Of a DNA stretch of 64,000 bases, positions 2,690-22,575 are shown piece after piece (position 1 is the stretch's first letter; every line of letters starts with the position of its first letter). A model generated the notes under the pieces. The model worked only from the letters and a program-made list of their open reading frames with translations, had not been told where the DNA came from and ran no database searches. The DNA is from an uncultured Actinomycetota bacterium (lineage in GTDB: Bacteria > Actinomycetota > Actinomycetes > JACCUZ01). A program made the position numbers and the translations under genes. Location: assembly GCA_963762865.1 (NCBI GenBank), contig CAVXNC010000001.1:47787-111786 (forward strand), written 5' to 3'.

Positions 2690-3967
2690 TCAGTCTGGCA
2701 GGTCCGGGGCGGCGCTCACGAGGCGGTCGAAGGCGAGCCGGTCGAAGGCGAACAGGGACGCGGCCATGCTGTGCAGGTGGGTGCGTCCCGCGACCGGTCC
2801 GATCTCGCCTGCGGCGAGGAAACCCGCGACGGCCGGCCGGCCCCACGCGGCTCGCACCGCGCTGGCGTCGTGGTCGGACCGGGGGAAGAAGTCGGCGCCG
2901 CGGCCGGTGCAGGAGAAGAGCAGGGCGCCGGCGGGCAGGACGGCGTCGCCCGGATAGGCGCGCAGGAGCACCGAGCGCAGGTCGTCGGCGGCCGTGGCCG
3001 CGTCCCGGACCTGGAACTGCACGGTCCGACCGACCGGGATGACGTCGCCCACCACCAGAGAGCCGCGCGCCGGGTCCGCCCCGACCACACCGCGCACCAG
3101 GAAGCCGCCAGGCGCGTGCTCGTCGGCGTACTCGTCCATCGCGACACCGAGCAGCAGGCCGCCGGTCACCATCGCCTGCTCCTCCGGGGGCAGGGCCGCG
3201 ACGAGTGCCTCCAGCTTGACCGTCGCGGGGACACCGGCGAGCCCGTGCAGCTCGTTCCCCTCCGCGGCCGTCACCGTCATGACCGGCCCCACGGGTCGGC
3301 AGCCGTGGCTGACCAGGGCTGTGGCGGCGTACCGGCCGCCGAAGGTCACCCCGACGGCGCCGCGGTCGTGCACGCGACCGTCGACGAGCAGCCGCGTCGA
3401 GCCCGCGCCGGTGGGCCCGGCGGCGAGCCCGCCGCTGACCGCGAGGCCCGGCAGGACCTCGACCGTCTGCTCGACGAACGAGTCGACCGGGAAGGAGTAC
3501 GGATCGGCCAGCAGCAGCGCAGCGGTGTCGTCCGGCAGCTGCGGAGGCAGACCGAGGACTGCGATCGACTCCGACGTGCGCAGCACCTCCAGGTGGAAGG
3601 ACCGCAGGTGCGCGCCGGGCAGGGCGGCGACCAGGACGCTGACGGCCGAGGCGTGCTCGACCGCCCGGCCGCCGCCGATGACGCCCGGCGCGTTGCAGCC
3701 GACCACGACACGCGCGCCGGTGAGGGTTGCGGCCCGCAGCAGGGCCGCCTCGGCATGGTCGGGGTCCGGCGAGCACGCGAAGATCGCGGCCAGGTCCGGT
3801 GGTGCCCCGCCCAGCGCCGGCAGCGCCGCCGCGACGGCCCGCTCGGCCGCGGCCAGCAGGTCGGCGTCCTCGCCGAGCCCGTCGCCGCACCGCACCTCGC
3901 CGCCGCCCGCTCCCACGCCCGCACCACGCACTCCCCCATCCTGACGACCGAATGTGCGCCGACACAC
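2690..3967 (-). CDS. FIST domain-containing protein (FIST_N + FIST_C sensor-like domains)
   Basis: 425-aa ORF. The N-terminal half (PDLAAIFACSPD...ARVVVGCNAPGVIGGG...SVLVAALPG) and the C-terminal half (GALLFSCTGRG...GFLAAGEIGP) follow the FIST_N/FIST_C consensus patterns. Its stop lies 5 nt from the ilvA start. Which residue is the true start is uncertain. Confidence 0.7.
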   Translation of the reverse strand: MCRRTFGRQDGGVRGAGVGAGGGEVRCGDGLGEDADLLAAAERAVAAALPALGGAPPDLAAIFACSPDPDHAEAALLRAATLTGARVVVGCNAPGVIGGGRAVEHASAVSVLVAALPGAHLRSFHLEVLRTSESIAVLGLPPQLPDDTAALLLADPYSFPVDSFVEQTVEVLPGLAVSGGLAAGPTGAGSTRLLVDGRVHDRGAVGVTFGGRYAATALVSHGCRPVGPVMTVTAAEGNELHGLAGVPATVKLEALVAALPPEEQAMVTGGLLLGVAMDEYADEHAPGGFLVRGVVGADPARGSLVVGDVIPVGRTVQFQVRDAATAADDLRSVLLRAYPGDAVLPAGALLFSCTGRGADFFPRSDHDASAVRAAWGRPAVAGFLAAGEIGPVAGRTHLHSMAASLFAFDRLAFDRLVSAAPDLPD

Positions 3968-8737: not shown

Positions 8738-9331
8738 TCAGAGACCCGGCAGCGAGATGGTCACCGACGGCAGCGGCGGGAGCGGCAGCGTCGGCCCATG
8801 CGACGGGTCGTCGGTCGGCTCGGTCGGCGCGGTCGGCTCGGTCGACGCCGTGGGCTCGGACGTCGCGCTGACAGTGGGGTCGCCGGTCGGCTGGGAGGTC
8901 GGCTGGGCCGACGAGTCGCCGGTCGACCCGCCCGAGGCGGTGACCGAACCCGATCTCGGCGAGGTCGCAGTGCCGCCGGCCGACCCGCTGCCACCGGCAC
9001 CGGAGCCGACGCCAGCCGCACCGGCAGCGCTGGCAGAGTCGGGCTCGGCGGTGGGGACCGCGCTGGCCTCCGTCGTCGGCTGGGCCGACTCGGGGAAGCT
9101 CAGCAGCGTGGTGCGGCTCGGGCCGTCGGACCCGTGCGAGGTCGCCCCGGCGCTGCTCCCCGGACGACCGGTCCCGTCGCGCAGGGCGGCGCTGGTGAGC
9201 GGCCCGAGCAGGGCCACGGCGGCGACGGTGCCGCCCACGGCGAGCGGGACGGCTGCCTCGGCGGCCCGGGCGGGGCGCCCCCGGCGGCGGTGCCGGCCAC
9301 GGCGGCCGGGCGTTGTGCTGGACACGCGCAT
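8738..9331 (-). CDS. secreted/membrane-anchored low-complexity Ser/Thr/Pro/Gly-rich protein
   Basis: 197 aa from MRVSSTTPGRRGRHRRRGRPARAAEAAVPLAVGGTVAAVALLGPL, an Arg-rich N-terminus followed by a hydrophobic segment. Then comes an STPG-rich region with EPTASTEPTAPTEPTDDP repeats, encoded by degenerate ggtcggctc-type DNA repeats. Several overlapping ORFs exist here in other frames; this one was chosen because of its signal-anchor-like N-terminus. Confidence 0.4.
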   Translation of the reverse strand: MRVSSTTPGRRGRHRRRGRPARAAEAAVPLAVGGTVAAVALLGPLTSAALRDGTGRPGSSAGATSHGSDGPSRTTLLSFPESAQPTTEASAVPTAEPDSASAAGAAGVGSGAGGSGSAGGTATSPRSGSVTASGGSTGDSSAQPTSQPTGDPTVSATSEPTASTEPTAPTEPTDDPSHGPTLPLPPLPSVTISLPGL

Positions 9332-9564
9332 TGCTCCTTCGAGCGCCACCGGACGTACGCCCGCGCTGACCGCGGCCCCCGACGCGCCCCCCGGTGGATG
9401 GGCAGGGAACGGGAGACGACCGTACCGAATCACCGCAAAACGGACAGCACCCGGTGTGTCGGGGACCGTCGCCCCGCCCTCCCAACGACCCCGTGTCCCC
9501 GCAGGTCACGCGGCCCCCCGTCCCCGCCGAGCCCGGTCCGGCCCCCACGAATAGCCTGTGCCCG

Positions 9565-16868: not shown

Positions 16869-16934
16869 AAGCCAGTCCCGAGATTCAGGGCTGAGTCGGC
16901 TCAGCCGACCTCGGTTACGTCCACCACCTCGTAG
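16533..16934 (+). CDS. YciI-like (YCII-related domain) protein, copy 2, with the presumed original C-terminus
   Basis: 133 aa. It is about 97% identical to copy 1 up to ...EVRRF, then continues KPVPRFRAESAQPTSVTSTTS. Confidence 0.8.
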   Translation: MPEYLIYFNQQWVGDHTEEWFRGRGPLAKAVVDEIKAAGAYVFAGGLEEEDGPVFSADATSGTLTFTDGPFVETKEFLGGLTVVDVTDEQAARMWAGKIAEACGWPQEVRRFKPVPRFRAESAQPTSVTSTTS

Positions 16935-17797
16935 CGCGGCGGGTGCGCCTCGCGCATCGCGTGGCAGGTCAGCAGTCCCGGCCGCTCACCCGCCGTCGCC
17001 AGGACCGTGACGATCAGGTTCCTCGGGTAGTGGCGAAGGCGGACCTGCCACCGGCCGTCGCCGAGGTAGATGGTGCCGGCCGGGGTCAGTGCCTCGATGC
17101 GCATCTCCCCGAGCACACGTCGTGCGTGCGTCGTCGCGGCCTGCGCCGCCGGCGCCGTGGTCGTACGCCCTCGGAGCCGGTCGAGATAGACGTTGCCGGC
17201 CTCGTGGGACTCCACCAGGTCGACGACCTCGCCCGGCTCCACCCGGCCGTAGTACAGGCCGTGCGGCATGGCCAGCACGTTGGCGGCGAACCGGTCGCCG
17301 CCGACGTGCGAGCACTCCCAGGAGCGGCCGGGCCGCACCTTGTCCAGCGCCGCCGCGACCGGCCGGCCCTCGACGGCGCAGCAGGTGTCGTGCCGCCCGT
17401 GCGTGCACACCAGGAAGAACGGTTCCTCGGACCGGGCACCGGAGCTGCCGTCGAGGGGCAGGGTCAGCAGCTCGTCGTCCGTCCCGAAGTCACCCCACCA
17501 GGTCGCTTCCCGGCCCGGTCGTGACGACACGACCGCCCATCGGCGACGGTCCGGCGCCCGGTGCCGACCCGGGCGGCGGACCAGGAGGACCCGGAGACCC
17601 TGGGCGATCGCCCGGCCGGAGACCGCCCGGCCGACGTCGGGGTCGAGACGCGAGCTGGTCAGCGCCTGCCGTCCCCAGCCCCCGGGCTGCTCGAGGAGCA
17701 GGAAACCCGCGGCAGGAGCCGCGGTCCCGGCCATCGAGTCGGCACGCAGCCGGCTGGCCACCGAGCAGCGCAGCGGCGCCTCGTCGGCGACGGTCAC
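16901..17797 (-). CDS. sucrase/ferredoxin-like family protein (thioredoxin-like Fe-S fold)
   Basis: About 298 aa. It has LVCTHGRHDTCCAVEGRP (a C-x-H-x...CC cluster). The GTG start at 17797 overlaps the upstream gene's stop as GTGA; an alternative ATG lies further in. Confidence 0.5.
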   Translation of the reverse strand: MTVADEAPLRCSVASRLRADSMAGTAAPAAGFLLLEQPGGWGRQALTSSRLDPDVGRAVSGRAIAQGLRVLLVRRPGRHRAPDRRRWAVVSSRPGREATWWGDFGTDDELLTLPLDGSSGARSEEPFFLVCTHGRHDTCCAVEGRPVAAALDKVRPGRSWECSHVGGDRFAANVLAMPHGLYYGRVEPGEVVDLVESHEAGNVYLDRLRGRTTTAPAAQAATTHARRVLGEMRIEALTPAGTIYLGDGRWQVRLRHYPRNLIVTVLATAGERPGLLTCHAMREAHPPRYEVVDVTEVG

Positions 17798-19074
17798 CGG
17801 GTGACGTCGACCACGACGACACCCTCGCGCACCAGTCGCCGGGCGCAGGCCATGGCCTCGTCCGCTGTGAGGTCCGGCAGCTCCGCGACGCGCACGGCCG
17901 CGCCGTCCAGGAGGCGCTGCAGCGCCTTGCCCCACGCGCCGGGCAGCCGGACGGTGCGGCCGGACAGCGCCAGCACGAGGTCGCTGTCGCTGCCCTCGTC
18001 GCTGCGCACCAGGTGGTCGAGGTGCTCGCGGACGACGAGCACCGACTCCGTGGAGAGCCGGTCGAGGGCGGCGGCCTGCGCGAGCGGGCCCAGCGGGGCG
18101 GCACGGCGGCTGCCGAGGCTCCGCTCGGCGAGGGCGGTCGACACCTCCGCCGCCGTGATCGAGCGGACGCGGGTGAGCAGCGCCTCGACGGTCGCGTCGA
18201 GGTCCGCCTGGACCTCGGCCGGCTCGGCCAGGTCGATCCCGAGCGGCAGCGAGGTGCGCAGCGCGACGTCGTCGGCCGCCAGGTCCAGCAGCGTCGCCAG
18301 GACGGCGTGCCGGGTCACCGGGTGGATCCCGACGGTGAGGTGGCAGGTGACCCCGCCGAGGGCCACCGCCGAGTGCAGGAAGCCCCGCGGAAGGTAGAGG
18401 GAGTCACCGGGTCGGAGCGCGGTGTCGACGACCGGCGTCTCCTCGGCGCGGGCGGCCACCGCGGCGCGATGGTCCGTCCAGGGTTGGTCGCGAAGCGGCA
18501 GCTCGTGGACGGGCTCGTGCACCCGCCACTGCTTCTCGCCGGCCACCTGGAGCACGAACACGTCATGGACGTCGTAGTGGGCGGCGAACCCCTGCGACTG
18601 GCTCGGGGTGATGTAGGCGTTGACCTGGACCGGGTGACCGAGGTCGGTCATGAGCTGCCCGGCGAAGTCGACCAGCGGCGGCCAGATCCGATGCAGGCCC
18701 TGGAGGACGATGGTGTGCCCGTCGGCGAAGAGCTCGAGCAGGCGGTCGTCGACGACCTGGTCGGAGACCTGCGCACCCGTCCCGCCCGAGCGGGTGTAGC
18801 GGCTCGCCGGCACGACCGAGCCGCCCTTGGCCACCCGGACGAAGGGGGTCCGGAGGCCGCGCCGGGCGACCAGCTCGTCGACCGCCTCGAGCGAGAACAG
18901 GTCCGTGAAGCCGGCGGTCCCCAGGTCGGCCGCCGGCGTCAGCAGCGGCCGCCGGCCCCAGGTCTCGGCCGCGAAGTCGGCAGTGTCGAGGCTGTCGACC
19001 GCCAGCGCGCGCGCCAGGGCGGGGCGCGCGTCACCGCGCGCCCCGACCCCGGCAGTACGACTGTCAGCGGTCAC
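17794..19074 (-). CDS. cupin-4/JmjC-domain protein (ribosomal oxygenase RoxA/YcfD-like)
   Basis: 426 aa. It has the HxD...H Fe(II) triad context AAHYDVHDVFVLQVAGEKQWRV...LHSAVA and a long C-terminal winged-helix-like region. Confidence 0.7.
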   Translation of the reverse strand: MTADSRTAGVGARGDARPALARALAVDSLDTADFAAETWGRRPLLTPAADLGTAGFTDLFSLEAVDELVARRGLRTPFVRVAKGGSVVPASRYTRSGGTGAQVSDQVVDDRLLELFADGHTIVLQGLHRIWPPLVDFAGQLMTDLGHPVQVNAYITPSQSQGFAAHYDVHDVFVLQVAGEKQWRVHEPVHELPLRDQPWTDHRAAVAARAEETPVVDTALRPGDSLYLPRGFLHSAVALGGVTCHLTVGIHPVTRHAVLATLLDLAADDVALRTSLPLGIDLAEPAEVQADLDATVEALLTRVRSITAAEVSTALAERSLGSRRAAPLGPLAQAAALDRLSTESVLVVREHLDHLVRSDEGSDSDLVLALSGRTVRLPGAWGKALQRLLDGAAVRVAELPDLTADEAMACARRLVREGVVVVDVTR

Positions 19075-19083
19075 GCGCAGGGC

Positions 19084-19290
19084 TCAGGCGCCGCTGTCCG
19101 CGCCACCATCGGCACCACTGTCAGCGCCGCCATCGGCACCGCCGTCCGCGCCACCGTCGGCGCCACCATCGGCGCCACCATCGGCACCGCCGTCGGCGCC
19201 ACCATCGGCACCGCCGTCCGAGCCGGTGCCGGCACCTCCGTCAGCGGGGCCGTGCTCCTCAGGGGTCGTGGTCATGTCGTCGTCGAGCAT
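19084..19290 (-). CDS. small acidic repeat protein, (DGGA)n
   Basis: 68 aa: MLDDDMTTTPEEHGPADGGAGTGSDGGADGGADGGADGGADGGADGGADGGADGGADSGADGGADSGA. A GGAGGG ribosome-binding site lies 6 nt upstream of the ATG. The stop is 10 nt upstream of the JmjC gene start. It is encoded by a 12-bp tandem repeat. Confidence 0.35.
   Translation of the reverse strand: MLDDDMTTTPEEHGPADGGAGTGSDGGADGGADGGADGGADGGADGGADGGADGGADSGADGGADSGA
19099..19236. repeat. 12-bp tandem repeat, about 11 units (gccrccatcggc-type), the coding repeat of the (DGGA)n ORF
   Basis: The stretch ...gccaccatcggcaccgccgtcggcgccaccatcggcgccaccatcggcaccgccgtc... has a 12-nt period with no spacers. It is not CRISPR-like. Confidence 0.6.
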
Positions 19291-19380
19291 GCGTTCCCTC
19301 CGTCTCGTCGTGCTGTCGTCCTGCAGGGATGGTGCTGTGATCGTCCTACCCGACGGACCTGGGAGAAACCAGGGCGCCCC

Positions 19381-20751
19381 TCAGCCGGCCGCGAGGAAGC
19401 TGAGCAGGTCCTGGCGGGTGAGCACGCCCGCCGGCTTGCCGTCCTCGTGGACGAGCAGTGCGTCGGACTTCTCGAGCGCTGCGATGGCGGCCGTGACCGG
19501 CTCGCCGGCGCCGACGATCGGCAACGGCTCCGACATGTGCCGCTCCACCGGGTCGGCCAGGTGGGCCCGTCCGCTGAAGAGCGCGTCCAGCAGCTCCTTC
19601 TCGATGACCGACCCGACCACTTCACCTGCTGTCACCGGCGGCTCGGCCTTGACGACGGGCATCTGCGAGACGGCGTACTCGCGCAGGATGTCGATCGCCT
19701 CGCGCACGGTCTCGTACGGGTGGACGTGCACCAGGCTCGGCACGTCCTCGCCCTTGCGCCGCATCACCTCGCCGACCGTCACCCCGCCGGCGGCGTCCTC
19801 GACGAAGCCGTAGTCCGCCATCCAGTCGTCGCTGAAGATCTTGCCGAGGTAGCCACGGCCGCCGTCGGGCAGCAGGACCACGACGACGTCGTCGGCGCTG
19901 GAGCGCTCGGCGACCTTCAGGGCGGCGACGACGGCCATCCCGCAGGAGCCGCCGACCAGCAGCCCCTCCTCGCGGGCCAGCCGCCGGGTCATGACGAAGG
20001 ACTCGCGGTCCGACACGGCCACGATCTCGTCGGCGACGTCCCGGTCGTAGGCGTCCGGCCAGAAGTCCTCGCCGACACCCTCGACGAGGTAGGGACGCCC
20101 GGTGCCGCCGGAGTAGACCGATCCTTCCGGGTCGGCCCCGATGACCTGCACGCGGCCCTCGCTGACCTCCTTGAGGTAGCGCCCGGTGCCGCTGATGGTG
20201 CCGCCCGTGCCGACGCCGGCCACGAAGTGCGTGATCCGGCCGTCGGTCTGCGTCCACAGCTCGGGTCCGGTGGTCTCGTAGTGCGAGCGCGGGTTGTCGG
20301 GGTTGCTGTACTGGTCGGGCTTCCAGGCGCCGTCGATCTCACGGACCAGCCGGTCGCTGACGGAGTAGTACGAGCGCGGGTCCTCGGGCGCCACGGCGGT
20401 GGGACACACCTCGACTCGCGCGCCGTACGCCGTCAGGACGTTGATCTTGTCCTGGGACACCTTGTCGGGCAGCACGAAGACGCACTGGTAGCCACGCCGC
20501 TGGGCGACGAGCGCCAGGCCGACGCCGGTGTTGCCGGAGGTGGGCTCGACGATCGTGCCGCCCGGACGGAGCGCGCCCGACTTCTCGGCGGACTCCACCA
20601 TCCGCAGCGCGATCCGGTCCTTCACCGAGCCGCCGGGGTTGAAGTACTCCACCTTGGCCAGCACGGTGGCCGGCACGTCGGCGGCGACAGAGGACAGCTT
20701 GACCAGCGGGGTGTTGCCGACCAGGTCGACCACCGACTCGTAGTACTGCAT
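19381..20751 (-). CDS. cbs: cystathionine beta-synthase (PLP domain plus C-terminal CBS pair)
   Basis: 456 aa from MQYYESVVDLVGNTPLVKL. It has the PLP-lysine motif NPGGSVKDR, the GTGGTISG loop, and two C-terminal CBS motifs. Confidence 0.85.
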   Translation of the reverse strand: MQYYESVVDLVGNTPLVKLSSVAADVPATVLAKVEYFNPGGSVKDRIALRMVESAEKSGALRPGGTIVEPTSGNTGVGLALVAQRRGYQCVFVLPDKVSQDKINVLTAYGARVEVCPTAVAPEDPRSYYSVSDRLVREIDGAWKPDQYSNPDNPRSHYETTGPELWTQTDGRITHFVAGVGTGGTISGTGRYLKEVSEGRVQVIGADPEGSVYSGGTGRPYLVEGVGEDFWPDAYDRDVADEIVAVSDRESFVMTRRLAREEGLLVGGSCGMAVVAALKVAERSSADDVVVVLLPDGGRGYLGKIFSDDWMADYGFVEDAAGGVTVGEVMRRKGEDVPSLVHVHPYETVREAIDILREYAVSQMPVVKAEPPVTAGEVVGSVIEKELLDALFSGRAHLADPVERHMSEPLPIVGAGEPVTAAIAALEKSDALLVHEDGKPAGVLTRQDLLSFLAAG

Positions 20752-20836
20752 GGCGCGAAGCCTAGGACCAGGCACATCACGCCAGCTCAGCCGCCGCCCT
20801 ACGCTGCCGACGCCCCGGGTCCGCTAGATTCCGACG

Positions 20837-21559
20837 GTGGCCAGCAGCCCTGCCGTGCAGCTCGCGCCCGGCGTGTGGCGCATCGCCACCGCGCCGCGAG
20901 ACCTGGTCAGCTCCTTCGCCTTCGTCGAGGACGACGGGCAGGTCACGCTGGTGGACGCCGGGACCAAGCGGGCGCTGCGCCGGCTGCTCGCCGGCCTGGC
21001 CCACATGAACGTCTCCCCGTCGGACGTCACCAGGATCATCGCCACCCACGCGCACCCCGACCACGTCGGCGGCCTGTCGGCCATGCGCGGCCGCACCGGC
21101 GCGTCGGTCGCCGTGCACGAGCGCGACGCGGCGTACGTCCGCGAGGGCAAGGGACCGGTGCTCGACCGCTCGACGCTCGGCGGCCGTCTGCGACGGCACA
21201 ACTCCGGGAGCACACCGACGCCCGTCGACGCCGAGCTCACCGACGGCGAGGTCCTCGACGTCGCCGGCGGCCTCCGGGTGCTGCACACACCCGGTCACAC
21301 CCCCGGCCACGTGTCGCTGCTGCACGAGCCGACGCGAGTCCTGGTGACCGGGGACTCGATCTGGAACATGCGCGGCCGGATGACCTGGTCGGTGCCGATG
21401 TTCTGCACGGACGCGGCGATGGCCAAGGAGACGGCACACGTCCTGGGCGAGGTCGACTACGAGGTGGCGGCCTTCACCCACGGACCGGAGATCCGGGACG
21501 GCGCGCGCGAGGCAGTGCGAGGCTTCCTGCGGCACAAGCTGGCGGCGGACCGCGCGTGA
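20837..21559 (+). CDS. MBL-fold metallo-hydrolase
   Basis: 240 aa. It has HAHPDHVGG (the HxHxDH motif) and later TPGHTPGH. Confidence 0.8.
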   Translation: MASSPAVQLAPGVWRIATAPRDLVSSFAFVEDDGQVTLVDAGTKRALRRLLAGLAHMNVSPSDVTRIIATHAHPDHVGGLSAMRGRTGASVAVHERDAAYVREGKGPVLDRSTLGGRLRRHNSGSTPTPVDAELTDGEVLDVAGGLRVLHTPGHTPGHVSLLHEPTRVLVTGDSIWNMRGRMTWSVPMFCTDAAMAKETAHVLGEVDYEVAAFTHGPEIRDGAREAVRGFLRHKLAADRA

Positions 21560-22575
21560 CGAAGGCACGGGTGGCGCGCCGGATCGCGATGGCGGCGGCG
21601 TACGGGGGCGGAGGCCTCGGCGTGCTGTCCGCGGGCGCCTTCGGGCTGATCCGCGCAGAGGCAGCGCTGGCGCGGCGCGCGATCGGGGAGCCGACCGGCG
21701 AGCCCCCGTCGGCCGCCGGCCTCTACGGTGCGCACCACGAGGCCGAGCCGATCACGCTGGCCCTGCTGGGCGACTCGAGCGCCGCCGGTCTCGGAGTGGC
21801 CATCCCCCACCAGGCGCCCGGCGCGATGCTGGCCGCGGGGCTCGCGGAGTGTGCCGACCGGCCGGTCCGGCTGGTCTGCCCGGCCGTGGTCGGCGCGAAG
21901 AGCAGCGACCTCGCGGTCCAGGTCGACGCCGTCGCGGAGGACGCCCCGGACGTCGCGGTCATCATGATCGGCGCCAACGACGTCACCCACCGGGTCAAGC
22001 CGCCCACGGCCGTGCGCCACCTCGACCACGCCGTGCGGGCGCTGCGCGAGCTCGGCGCGGAGGTCGTCGTCGGGACCTGTCCCGACCTCGGCACGGTGGA
22101 GCCCGTCGCCCAGCCGCTGCGCTGGATCGCCCGCCGGTCCAGCCGGCAGCTCGCCGCCGCCCAGACCATCGTCGTCGTCGAGGCCGGCGGCCGGACGGTG
22201 TCGCTCGGCGACATCCTCGGCCCGGAGTTCGCGTCGTCGCCGAAGGAGATGTTCGGACCGGACCGCTTCCACCCCTCGCCGGCCGGCTACGCCAGCGCGG
22301 CCGCCGCGCTGCTCCCGTCGGTGTGCGCATCGCTCGACGTCTGGTTCGGCGAGGAGGCCGAGCGGGTGCCGGACCTGACCCGCGGTGAGGGCGTACGCCC
22401 GATCGCCCTGGCCGCCGTCGAGGCAGCCGACGAGCCGGGCACCGAGGTCGCGGGCGCCCAGGTCGGCGGGCGCGACCGGGGGCCGCGCGGCCGCTGGGCC
22501 CTCCTGCGCCATCGCCCCGGCCGCGGCGGGCAGCAGGTCCTGTCCTCCGCGGAGTCGGACGACCCGCTGCGCTAG
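21556..22575 (+). CDS. SGNH/GDSL-family hydrolase (lipase/acylhydrolase-like)
   Basis: The GTG start overlaps the MBL gene stop as GTGA. It has LALLGDSSAAG (the GDS block), IMIGANDV (block III) and DRFHPSPAGY (the DxxH block V). Confidence 0.7.
   Translation: MTKARVARRIAMAAAYGGGGLGVLSAGAFGLIRAEAALARRAIGEPTGEPPSAAGLYGAHHEAEPITLALLGDSSAAGLGVAIPHQAPGAMLAAGLAECADRPVRLVCPAVVGAKSSDLAVQVDAVAEDAPDVAVIMIGANDVTHRVKPPTAVRHLDHAVRALRELGAEVVVGTCPDLGTVEPVAQPLRWIARRSSRQLAAAQTIVVVEAGGRTVSLGDILGPEFASSPKEMFGPDRFHPSPAGYASAAAALLPSVCASLDVWFGEEAERVPDLTRGEGVRPIALAAVEAADEPGTEVAGAQVGGRDRGPRGRWALLRHRPGRGGQQVLSSAESDDPLR

Follow-up and report, generated by a model that had tools for sequence, protein, structure and literature searches.

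A conserved acidic tetrapeptide-repeat protein encoded beside a ROX-type JmjC oxygenase and a Suc_Fer-like protein in Actinomycetota

Within a 64,000-nucleotide stretch of contig CAVXNC010000001.1 from an uncultured Actinomycetota bacterium (here called the window), three genes follow one another on the minus strand: a 68-codon open reading frame (ORF) for a small acidic protein made up largely of the repeated tetrapeptide Asp-Gly-Gly-Ala (DGGA), a gene for a JmjC oxygenase of the ROX (ribosomal oxygenase) type, and a gene for a thioredoxin-like, ferredoxin-type protein of the Suc_Fer-like family. The small ORF, its pairing with the oxygenase gene and the possible function of the trio are the subject of this report. 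The features at the locus, in window coordinates, are:

19084..19290, minus strand: small acidic repeat protein gene, 68 codons plus stop, first cistron of the operon (ATG at 19290, TGA at 19084-19086)
19219..19290, minus strand: non-repeat N-terminal segment of the small protein, MLDDDMTTTPEEHGPADGGAGTGS, proposed recognition (leader-like) part, conserved at the amino-acid level across families and classes
19087..19242, minus strand: coding tandem repeat of 13 in-register 12-nt units, proposed modified (core-like) part
19296..19301, minus strand: Shine-Dalgarno sequence GGAGGG, 5 nt 5' of the small-ORF ATG, read directly
19346..19370, minus strand: promoter-like motif GGTTTC-N13-GGGTAG of the SigF/SigB general-stress type, a conserved block in the intergenic alignment
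17794..19074, minus strand: ROX-type JmjC Fe(II)/2-oxoglutarate oxygenase gene, 426 aa, GTG start (Pfam JmjC_2 and Cupin_8)
17797..18084, minus strand: 3'-terminal segment of the oxygenase gene
16901..17797, minus strand: Suc_Fer-like (PF06999) thioredoxin-like ferredoxin-type gene (Pfam E 5.2e-19)
19381..20775, minus strand: cystathionine beta-synthase gene, upstream on the same strand (TIGR01137, 1e-197)

Read directly, the small ORF translates to MLDDDMTTTPEEHGPADGGAGTGS followed by 11 D(G/S)GA units. This is exactly the translation quoted in the preliminary description of the locus, which left the strand unstated. The same description correctly reported a GGAGGG ribosome-binding site and a stop just before the oxygenase gene, although both spacings came out one nucleotide shorter on measurement: 5 nt rather than 6 nt from the site to the ATG, and 9 nt rather than 10 nt from the stop to the oxygenase GTG at 19074. 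The protein is small, acidic and of low complexity, as had been claimed: its isoelectric point (pI) is 4.05, it carries a net charge of about -17, and it lacks Lys, Arg, Cys and aromatic residues. Its N-terminal segment combines a family motif, M-(A/S/G)-L-(D/N/E/S)-D-D-D-(M/I)-T-T, with the module E-H-G-P-A-D-G-G-A.

The coding repeat has a 12-bp unit, as first described; the original estimate of about 11 units becomes 13 when they are counted in register, namely 12 copies of D-(G/S)-G-A and one of G-T-G-S. Tandem Repeats Finder reports the array at period 12 (9.2 copies, 19100-19209), period 24 (5.8 copies) and period 48 (3.3 copies, 19087-19246, score 194), with matches of 77-83% across the periods. 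It is the highest-scoring tandem repeat in the window, the runner-up scoring 87, and the sole (DxGx)n-coding site there in any frame.

The imperfections of the array are informative about its reading frame. Third codon positions of the DGGA frame hold 19 of the 21 departures from the unit consensus, and the ratio of synonymous to non-synonymous differences is 105 to 18 in this frame, against 83 to 16 in the antisense frame, which reads (APPS)n. The synonymous test prefers the DGGA frame over four other frames and does not separate it from APPS; because both have the same wobble positions, the test is blind to strand, and the strand call is therefore based on the start, the Shine-Dalgarno site, the stop and synteny. 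The antisense ORF (18827..19813) crosses both real neighbouring genes in the window, the ground on which it had already been set aside in the preliminary description. A far longer open frame of 1828 codons (17089..22575, plus strand), which covers the entire region antisense to the real genes or in another frame, is likewise no gene and a typical artefact of DNA with 73% GC.

The oxygenase was named earlier as a JmjC/cupin protein resembling RoxA/YcfD, and this identification is borne out. It scores 96 bits against Pfam JmjC_2 (PF08007; cutoff 22, E 1.5e-27) and also matches Cupin_8, while a profile search of the PDB returns NO66 (3e-25), MINA53 (1e-21) and YcfD (1e-7). Four residues, H166, D168, H234 and K181, do not vary among 25 sequences and line up with the HYD, K and H positions of NO66, so that the HxD...H Fe(II) triad and the 2-oxoglutarate-binding Lys are retained and the enzyme is predicted to be catalytically intact. 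The full ROX architecture is present: a JmjC domain, a helical dimerisation domain and a C-terminal winged helix. An AlphaFold2 model (pLDDT 80) matches NO66, MINA53 and YcfD over about 420-460 alignment columns with TM-scores of 0.45-0.64. The fold of the C-terminal domain, about residues 331-426, is that of the leader-peptide recognition element (RRE) of pathways for peptides that are ribosomally synthesised and then modified after translation (RiPPs).

The arrangement of the trio is tight. No Shine-Dalgarno sequence of its own precedes the oxygenase GTG at 19074, a start supported by an ATG at the same position in a relative (L085). At the other end of the oxygenase gene the stop overlaps the GTG start of the Suc_Fer-like gene in a directly read GTGA (17794..17797, minus strand). 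Given the 9-nt gap, the missing Shine-Dalgarno sequence and this overlap, translation of the three cistrons appears to be coupled. In the window the small ORF happens to share its frame with the oxygenase gene, their starts 216 nt apart; since this is not the case at other loci, read-through of the stop codon is no conserved feature.

To place the small ORF in a comparative setting, the oxygenase was aligned with its homologs, of which 6442 proteins match at E <= 1e-10. A scan of one genome per species gave 593 stretches encoding an oxygenase relative; 80 loci were kept, and 77 of these are informative, the other three having no upstream sequence. In all 77, a stop-free D-G-G-A-rich ORF lies directly upstream of the oxygenase gene on the same strand. 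A start could be assigned in 74 loci and is ATG in 69 of them, with GGAG, GAGG or AGGA found 4-17 nt 5' of the conserved start in at least 61. Relative to the estimated oxygenase start, the stop usually falls within a range from 41 nt upstream to 19 nt downstream; at some Kribbella loci the gap widens to 130-400 nt. The family spans the Actinomycetes and the Thermoleophilia, with members in Kribbella, Actinokineospora, Amycolatopsis, Blastococcus, Geodermatophilus, Klenkia, Cryptosporangium, Kineosporia, Jatrophihabitans, Allobranchiibius, Gaiella and other Thermoleophilia, and gene callers predict the ORF in several relatives. On these comparative grounds the small ORF is almost certainly a genuine protein-coding gene.

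The repeat number varies, as had been anticipated, and always in frame. Three close metagenomic relatives, whose oxygenases are 97%, 83% and 82% identical to that of the window, have 8, 9 and 11 units, compared with 11 in the window and 19 in a further locus (L002); the N-termini and Shine-Dalgarno regions of the three are near-identical, and for one of them the gene caller picked a wrong frame. The preliminary description had also raised the idea of a phase-variable ON/OFF element, and had named frame-breaking copy numbers among relatives as evidence against a coding function. Every variant compared is in frame, and with a 12-nt unit, in-frame changes throughout and units only 77-83% identical, the idea of an ON/OFF switch fails.

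Base composition is a further shared trait. At third codon positions the small ORF has a G+C content (GC3) of 0.70, against about 0.95 in the neighbouring genes, which taken alone would speak against a coding function; yet 66 of 67 orthologous loci show the same deficit. Glycine codons account for it, GGT being used more often (31% vs 15%) and GGG less often (7% vs 20%). As the deficit recurs so regularly, it is a property of the family and no sign of non-coding DNA.

Family statistics were drawn from 67 full-length members. They range from 66 to 225 aa (median 100) and contain between 6 and 21 DGGA units; two close metagenome relatives fall below this range with 57 and 60 aa. The composition is 40% G, 18% A, 17% D and 7% S, with Cys and hydrophobic residues essentially absent. 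DGGADGGA occurs in 67/67, and Gly follows Asp in 961 of about 1350 cases. Asp is the sole functional side chain kept in every member. In most members the N-terminus reads M-(A/S/G)-(L/F)-(D/N/E/S)-D-D-D-(M/I)-(T/V/N)-T. One metagenome contig (L089) carries two tandem small acidic genes (2960-3163 and 3284-3538) before the JmjC gene, one a variant with the C-terminal tail D-P-T-T-E-V-D-E-D-P-R-F-A, the other a canonical (A-D-G-G)n protein.

Among predicted proteins the family is rare. A word-indexed search found 21 homologs, including 69-aa Amycolatopsis proteins, and a profile search of 1.84 billion representative proteins returned only 69 matches. The statement that no such family had been described holds: neither Pfam nor NCBIfam gave a family for the window ORF or for any of 14 homologs, the sole matches being weak low-complexity ones to staphylococcal Ser-Asp repeat adhesins, far below cutoffs, and nine members had no Pfam match of any kind (with an E limit of 0.01 for the window ORF and of 1 for eight homologs). 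A full-text literature search for DGGADGGA retrieved no paper. The 69-aa Amycolatopsis homologs (A0A229S6R3 and R4SXH8, in the cluster of P0126) bear the UniProt label 'BatC protein', treated here as unsupported since no evidence for it was found; NCBI calls them hypothetical, and a whole-word literature search for BatC found no paper appearing to concern the family. RTX/beta-roll calcium-binding repeats (GGxGxDxUx, HemolysinCabind) were considered and rejected, the period here being four residues with no hydrophobic positions and no Pfam match.

Part of this rarity comes from gene calling. Wrong-frame calls of the repeat are frequent (VALTVALT.. or VARTAVPM.., e.g. L086:2638-2859), and callers also place the oxygenase start too far upstream, so that the gene runs through the repeat, or hop between frames to give apparent 'fusions'. 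Four apparent natural fusions of repeat and oxygenase (P0049, P0170, P0189 and P0214) use other frames or hop between frames and were taken as frame errors or over-extended calls.

The conserved unit comprises three genes. The Suc_Fer-like gene lies immediately downstream of the oxygenase gene in 75 of the 80 loci. Its product is a basic protein (pI 8.9) bearing C-x8-C(C) and H-V-G-G-D motifs, and belongs to the same Pfam family (PF06999) as the Apd1/Aim32-type thioredoxin-like [2Fe-2S] ferredoxins, from which a redox function is predicted. All other neighbours depend on the lineage, none being common to more than 19 loci; cystathionine beta-synthase lies upstream only in the clade of the window, and other lineages have a molybdopterin oxidoreductase (19 loci), UbiE, an MqnC-like gene, MsrA or catalase. 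A fourth conserved operon gene was sought in the flanks and rejected, the flanks differing by lineage.

A reciprocal test gave the same picture. Small-protein homologs found by sequence lie upstream of a JmjC_2 gene in three of three informative cases with differing genomic surroundings, and the Suc_Fer-like gene follows the oxygenase in both cases where the contig continues past it. The first is in Amycolatopsis, beside a catalase gene; the second is a metagenome contig carrying both downstream genes; the third belongs to a variant subfamily marked by a D-P-T-T-E-x-D-E-D-x-R-F-A tail and lies in tandem with a canonical copy before the oxygenase gene, within which the contig ends. The pairing of ORF and JmjC gene, whose conservation in relatives the preliminary description had proposed to check, is thus upheld both in the 77 informative loci and in the three reciprocal cases. 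With the Suc_Fer-like gene in 75/80 loci, no other broadly shared neighbour and a reciprocal test that holds, we take the conserved unit to be these three genes.

The spacer upstream of the small ORF holds a further conserved element. In the window it is 90 nt long, and the promoter-like motif sits in it just after the cystathionine beta-synthase stop. An alignment of 14 intergenic regions shows the conserved block CTGGTTTC-N13-GGGTAGGACG. In 32 of 78 loci, where background would predict 0.34, a relaxed form of the motif lies 55-135 nt upstream of the small ORF, an enrichment of about 90-fold. It is present in the clade of the window, in Gaiella and other Thermoleophilia, in Jatrophihabitans-like genomes and in metagenome-assembled genomes of Mycobacteriales; since the genes further upstream differ between these lineages, the motif goes with the small gene. 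For SigF of M. smegmatis the consensus is GTTT-N(14-19)-GGGTA, with variants GGGCA and GGGAA (PMC4694148), and the GTTT-N14-GGGTA of the window fits it, a match at the level of sequence to the promoters of SigF in mycobacteria and SigB in Streptomyces and Bacillus. In Kribbella and a number of other lineages the motif was not found; a GTTTAG-N14-GCGCAC variant may take its place there. The operon probably has a SigF/SigB-type stress promoter of its own, which suggests expression of the small gene under stress or in stationary phase. Rfam searches and simple sigma-70 and terminator scans of 18800-19700 gave nothing significant.

Genes for the repair or detoxification of oxidative damage adjoin the trio in several unrelated lineages, with MsrA downstream in two loci (L081 and L083) and catalase upstream in another (L087), and in 19 loci a gene with a molybdopterin oxidoreductase domain lies divergently upstream (e.g. 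L012:1945-2562). These neighbours could fit the stress-type motif, or could be coincidence. Elsewhere in the window there is a second coding-type repeat with a period of 9/18 nt, seen as overlapping tandem repeats at 8806-8867; it lies inside a putative ORF (8738..9433, minus strand) that reads ...SEPTASTEPTAPTEPTDDPS..., a Pro/Thr-rich, linker-like segment.

Taken together, the trio is well supported as a real and widespread gene set, which we read as an enzyme with a probable dedicated ribosomal peptide or protein partner. As for what the small protein does, our preferred reading is that it is the dedicated substrate of the oxygenase, to which we give a probability of roughly 45-50%. Four features had escaped the preliminary description: the Suc_Fer-like third gene, the conserved N-terminal motif, the SigF/SigB-type motif and the RRE-like, peptide-binding type of fold of the oxygenase C-terminal domain. 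It is these four together that make an enzyme-substrate relation of the RiPP type more likely. The conserved N-terminal segment (M-A-L-D-D-D-D-M-T-T ... G-P-A-D-G-G-A) would be bound by the RRE-fold domain of the oxygenase, and the flexible repeat would feed into the JmjC active site, where repeat residues would be hydroxylated. Asp, most probably at C3, is the likely target, as it is the only universally conserved functional residue. The ferredoxin-like protein may keep the catalytic iron reduced or supply electrons. The product would be a disordered, hydroxy-Asp-rich protein suited to chelating Fe, Ca or Mg under stress, and slippage of the repeat would let the copy number drift in frame, changing valency with no ON/OFF switching.

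Several known systems offer points of comparison. Within the ROX family, the window oxygenase shares with E. coli YcfD/RoxA and human NO66 and MINA53 (PF08007) the same three domains, the HxD...H triad and the 2-oxoglutarate-binding Lys, and NO66 and MINA53 are its closest solved structures; the difference is that for known ROX genes neither a small acidic repeat protein encoded upstream as a dedicated companion nor a Suc_Fer-like partner has been described. RRE-dependent RiPP pathways are similar in having a short gene adjacent to and co-oriented with the enzyme gene, as in the 77 loci. A division of the small protein into leader and core may be suggested by its N-terminal motif and variable number of repeats, with a different motif in Thermoleophilia and Kineosporia. 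The RiPP pathways differ in that the 'core' here consists of 6-21 copies of a single tetrapeptide in a protein of 57-225 aa, and the product may stay an intracellular protein, unlike a secreted RiPP natural product.

Hydroxylation of Asp at C3 in a repeated context by a JmjC/2-oxoglutarate enzyme has precedent in FIH (ankyrin repeats), AspH (EGF domains) and CinX (cinnamycin). These enzymes belong to different subfamilies: Foldseek relates FIH to the oxygenase model at E 1e-8 with a TM-score of about 0.34, against 5e-24 for NO66.

RRE-like domains fused to PF08007 JmjC domains, with bacterial homologs in RiPP-like contexts, have been reported (Bregman et al. 2025, PMC12710340), and the fold of the window oxygenase agrees with this. 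Distant paralogs of the window oxygenase (29-33% identity) are found on two Streptomyces plasmids, that of S. clavuligerus (NZ_CP065235.1, 4832-8179; L091) and that of Streptomyces sp. NBC_00503 (L090), and on both an S9 peptidase gene and a gene for an ABC or MFS transporter lie close by. The ORF directly upstream of the paralog is in S. clavuligerus an annotated acidic, Asp/Pro-rich one of 48 aa, MDDKKTSLEPDEIEVIPPVSTPDFVIADNDPSDPPIAIADPDPFDPVI, and in NBC_00503 only an unannotated 22-aa candidate, MSDIEFVDTAADLVASYYLGIQ. From gene content, these plasmid loci look like an uncharacterised RiPP-type cluster.

In the literature, searches on JmjC enzymes and RiPPs, YcfD and actinobacteria, PF06999 and ribosomal oxygenases found no description of a pair of small protein and oxygenase and no report of a PF06999 protein paired with a JmjC enzyme, and the pair is not mentioned in Iyer et al. 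2010 (PMC2938197).

A number of observations weigh against the small protein being a RiPP-like substrate. In the flanks of the 80 loci the conserved module has no protease or exporter, and it sits in the core chromosome, hence it is no classical RiPP cluster. Thermoleophilia (M-x-D-E-x-R-E-E-H-G) and Kineosporia (M-S-E-T-E-P-E-G-P-A) have other sequences in place of the N-terminal motif, these variant N-termini running straight into (E)(H)G-P-A-D-G-G-A, and the promoter motif is detected in only 41% of loci. Characterised ROX targets are His or Arg residues of basic ribosomal proteins, which many members lack: His is absent from 23/67 and Lys/Arg from 28/67, so that the known target residues are not conserved. 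To our knowledge, hydroxylation of Asp by a ROX enzyme has no precedent. The RRE-like C-terminal fold is no specific evidence for leader binding, since characterised ROX enzymes have the same domain, and simple electrostatics disfavour binding between the oxygenase (pI 5.45, net charge -13) and the small protein (about -17), both being acidic; the basic partner in the trio is the Suc_Fer-like protein. Beyond the conserved, co-oriented gene set, everything said here of function we infer from sequence.

The main alternative, which we consider rather unlikely, is another kind of partnership, along the lines of the metal-binding or chaperone-like role raised in the preliminary description: the small protein would be an unmodified, polyanionic, disordered protein serving as a buffer or donor of metal (Fe(II), Mg, Ca), as a chaperone, or as an inhibitor or regulator of the oxygenase or of the basic ferredoxin-like protein, and the true target of the oxygenase would lie elsewhere, for example in a ribosomal protein as for YcfD, NO66 and MINA53. 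Gene linkage would be equal to that expected of a substrate, and the extreme negative charge with its many Asp carboxylates, the basic Suc_Fer-like protein, the known ribosomal substrates of ROX enzymes that have the same C-terminal domain, and the oxidative-stress flanks of several lineages (MsrA, catalase, molybdopterin oxidoreductase) all sit well with it. It leaves unexplained, however, the two-part layout of a conserved N-terminus and a variable count of identical units, which resembles a leader and core, and the small acidic ORFs upstream of distant paralogs in RiPP-like clusters. Nor does it account for the strict A-D-G-G register, as any acidic sequence would do as a metal buffer.

Less probable still is that the ORF acts in cis, its translation setting oxygenase expression by termination and reinitiation at the start 9 nt downstream, with the acidic N-terminus and the Gly/Asp-rich nascent chain modulating the progress of the ribosome. 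The short gap, the lack of a Shine-Dalgarno sequence before the oxygenase GTG and the position of the stop close to the estimated oxygenase start in most loci are all as expected for such a leader ORF, and N-terminal nascent chains rich in Asp and Glu are known to destabilise translating ribosomes (intrinsic ribosome destabilisation). But the ORF is long and variable (66-225 aa, and 57 and 60 aa in two relatives) and its repeat register is conserved across two classes; no alternative RNA structures, terminator or Rfam element were found in 18800-19700; the gaps of 130-400 nt in Kribbella mean that coupling is not universal; and one locus has two tandem paralogous small genes. An attenuator or leader-peptide upstream ORF in the usual sense was rejected, the ORF being 57-225 aa long with only 9 nt to the next start and no terminator-like site or Rfam match.

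Finally, a phase-variable contingency locus or mere unstable repeat DNA, with the ORF incidental or the real frame the antisense (APPS)n, is scarcely credible and essentially refuted by the comparative data: copy number does vary among close relatives, and a synonymous pattern shared with the APPS frame is not strand-specific, but the 12-nt unit lies inside an ORF whose variants (8, 9, 11 and 19 units) are all in frame, the units are diverged and synonymously scrambled, the sense frame, with its conserved ATG, Shine-Dalgarno sequence and N-terminal motif and its stop at the start of the oxygenase gene, runs in the direction of that gene in every case, and the antisense ORF runs across two real genes.

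The oxygenase family and the idea of RRE-bearing JmjC enzymes were known already. New are the family of small proteins, the strict association of its genes with those for a ROX enzyme and a Suc_Fer-like protein, and the stress-type promoter motif, none of which is in the database models or literature searched; an RRE-bearing JmjC enzyme, a thioredoxin-like ferredoxin and a polyanionic repeat protein, under a stress-type promoter motif, have not previously been described together. The gene shows how such a family can be overlooked. With an atypical GC3 and two other frames open, it is often missed or called in the wrong frame by annotation pipelines, and it is represented by only 69 matches among 1.84 billion representatives, yet it stands beside the oxygenase gene in every informative genome. 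Since the window protein has no Lys or Arg, standard tryptic proteomics is blind to it, and its absence from proteome data sets is thus no evidence against expression.

For the enzymes, the small protein provides a candidate substrate in a branch of the ribosomal-oxygenase family that is large, actinobacterial and uncharacterised; bacterial members of this family have mostly unknown natural substrates. In its fullest form, which we regard as unlikely, the proposal is that the operon makes a polymer of a new, ribosomally synthesised type, a stress-induced intracellular (3-hydroxy-Asp-Gly-Gly-Ala)n protein, hydroxylated by an RRE-bearing JmjC enzyme of the ROX family that is served by a dedicated thioredoxin-like ferredoxin, and acting as a high-capacity metal chelator. 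If true, this polymer would be a protein-sized relative of the hydroxy-aspartate siderophores, and the ROX fold would have originated as a peptide-precursor-modifying enzyme.

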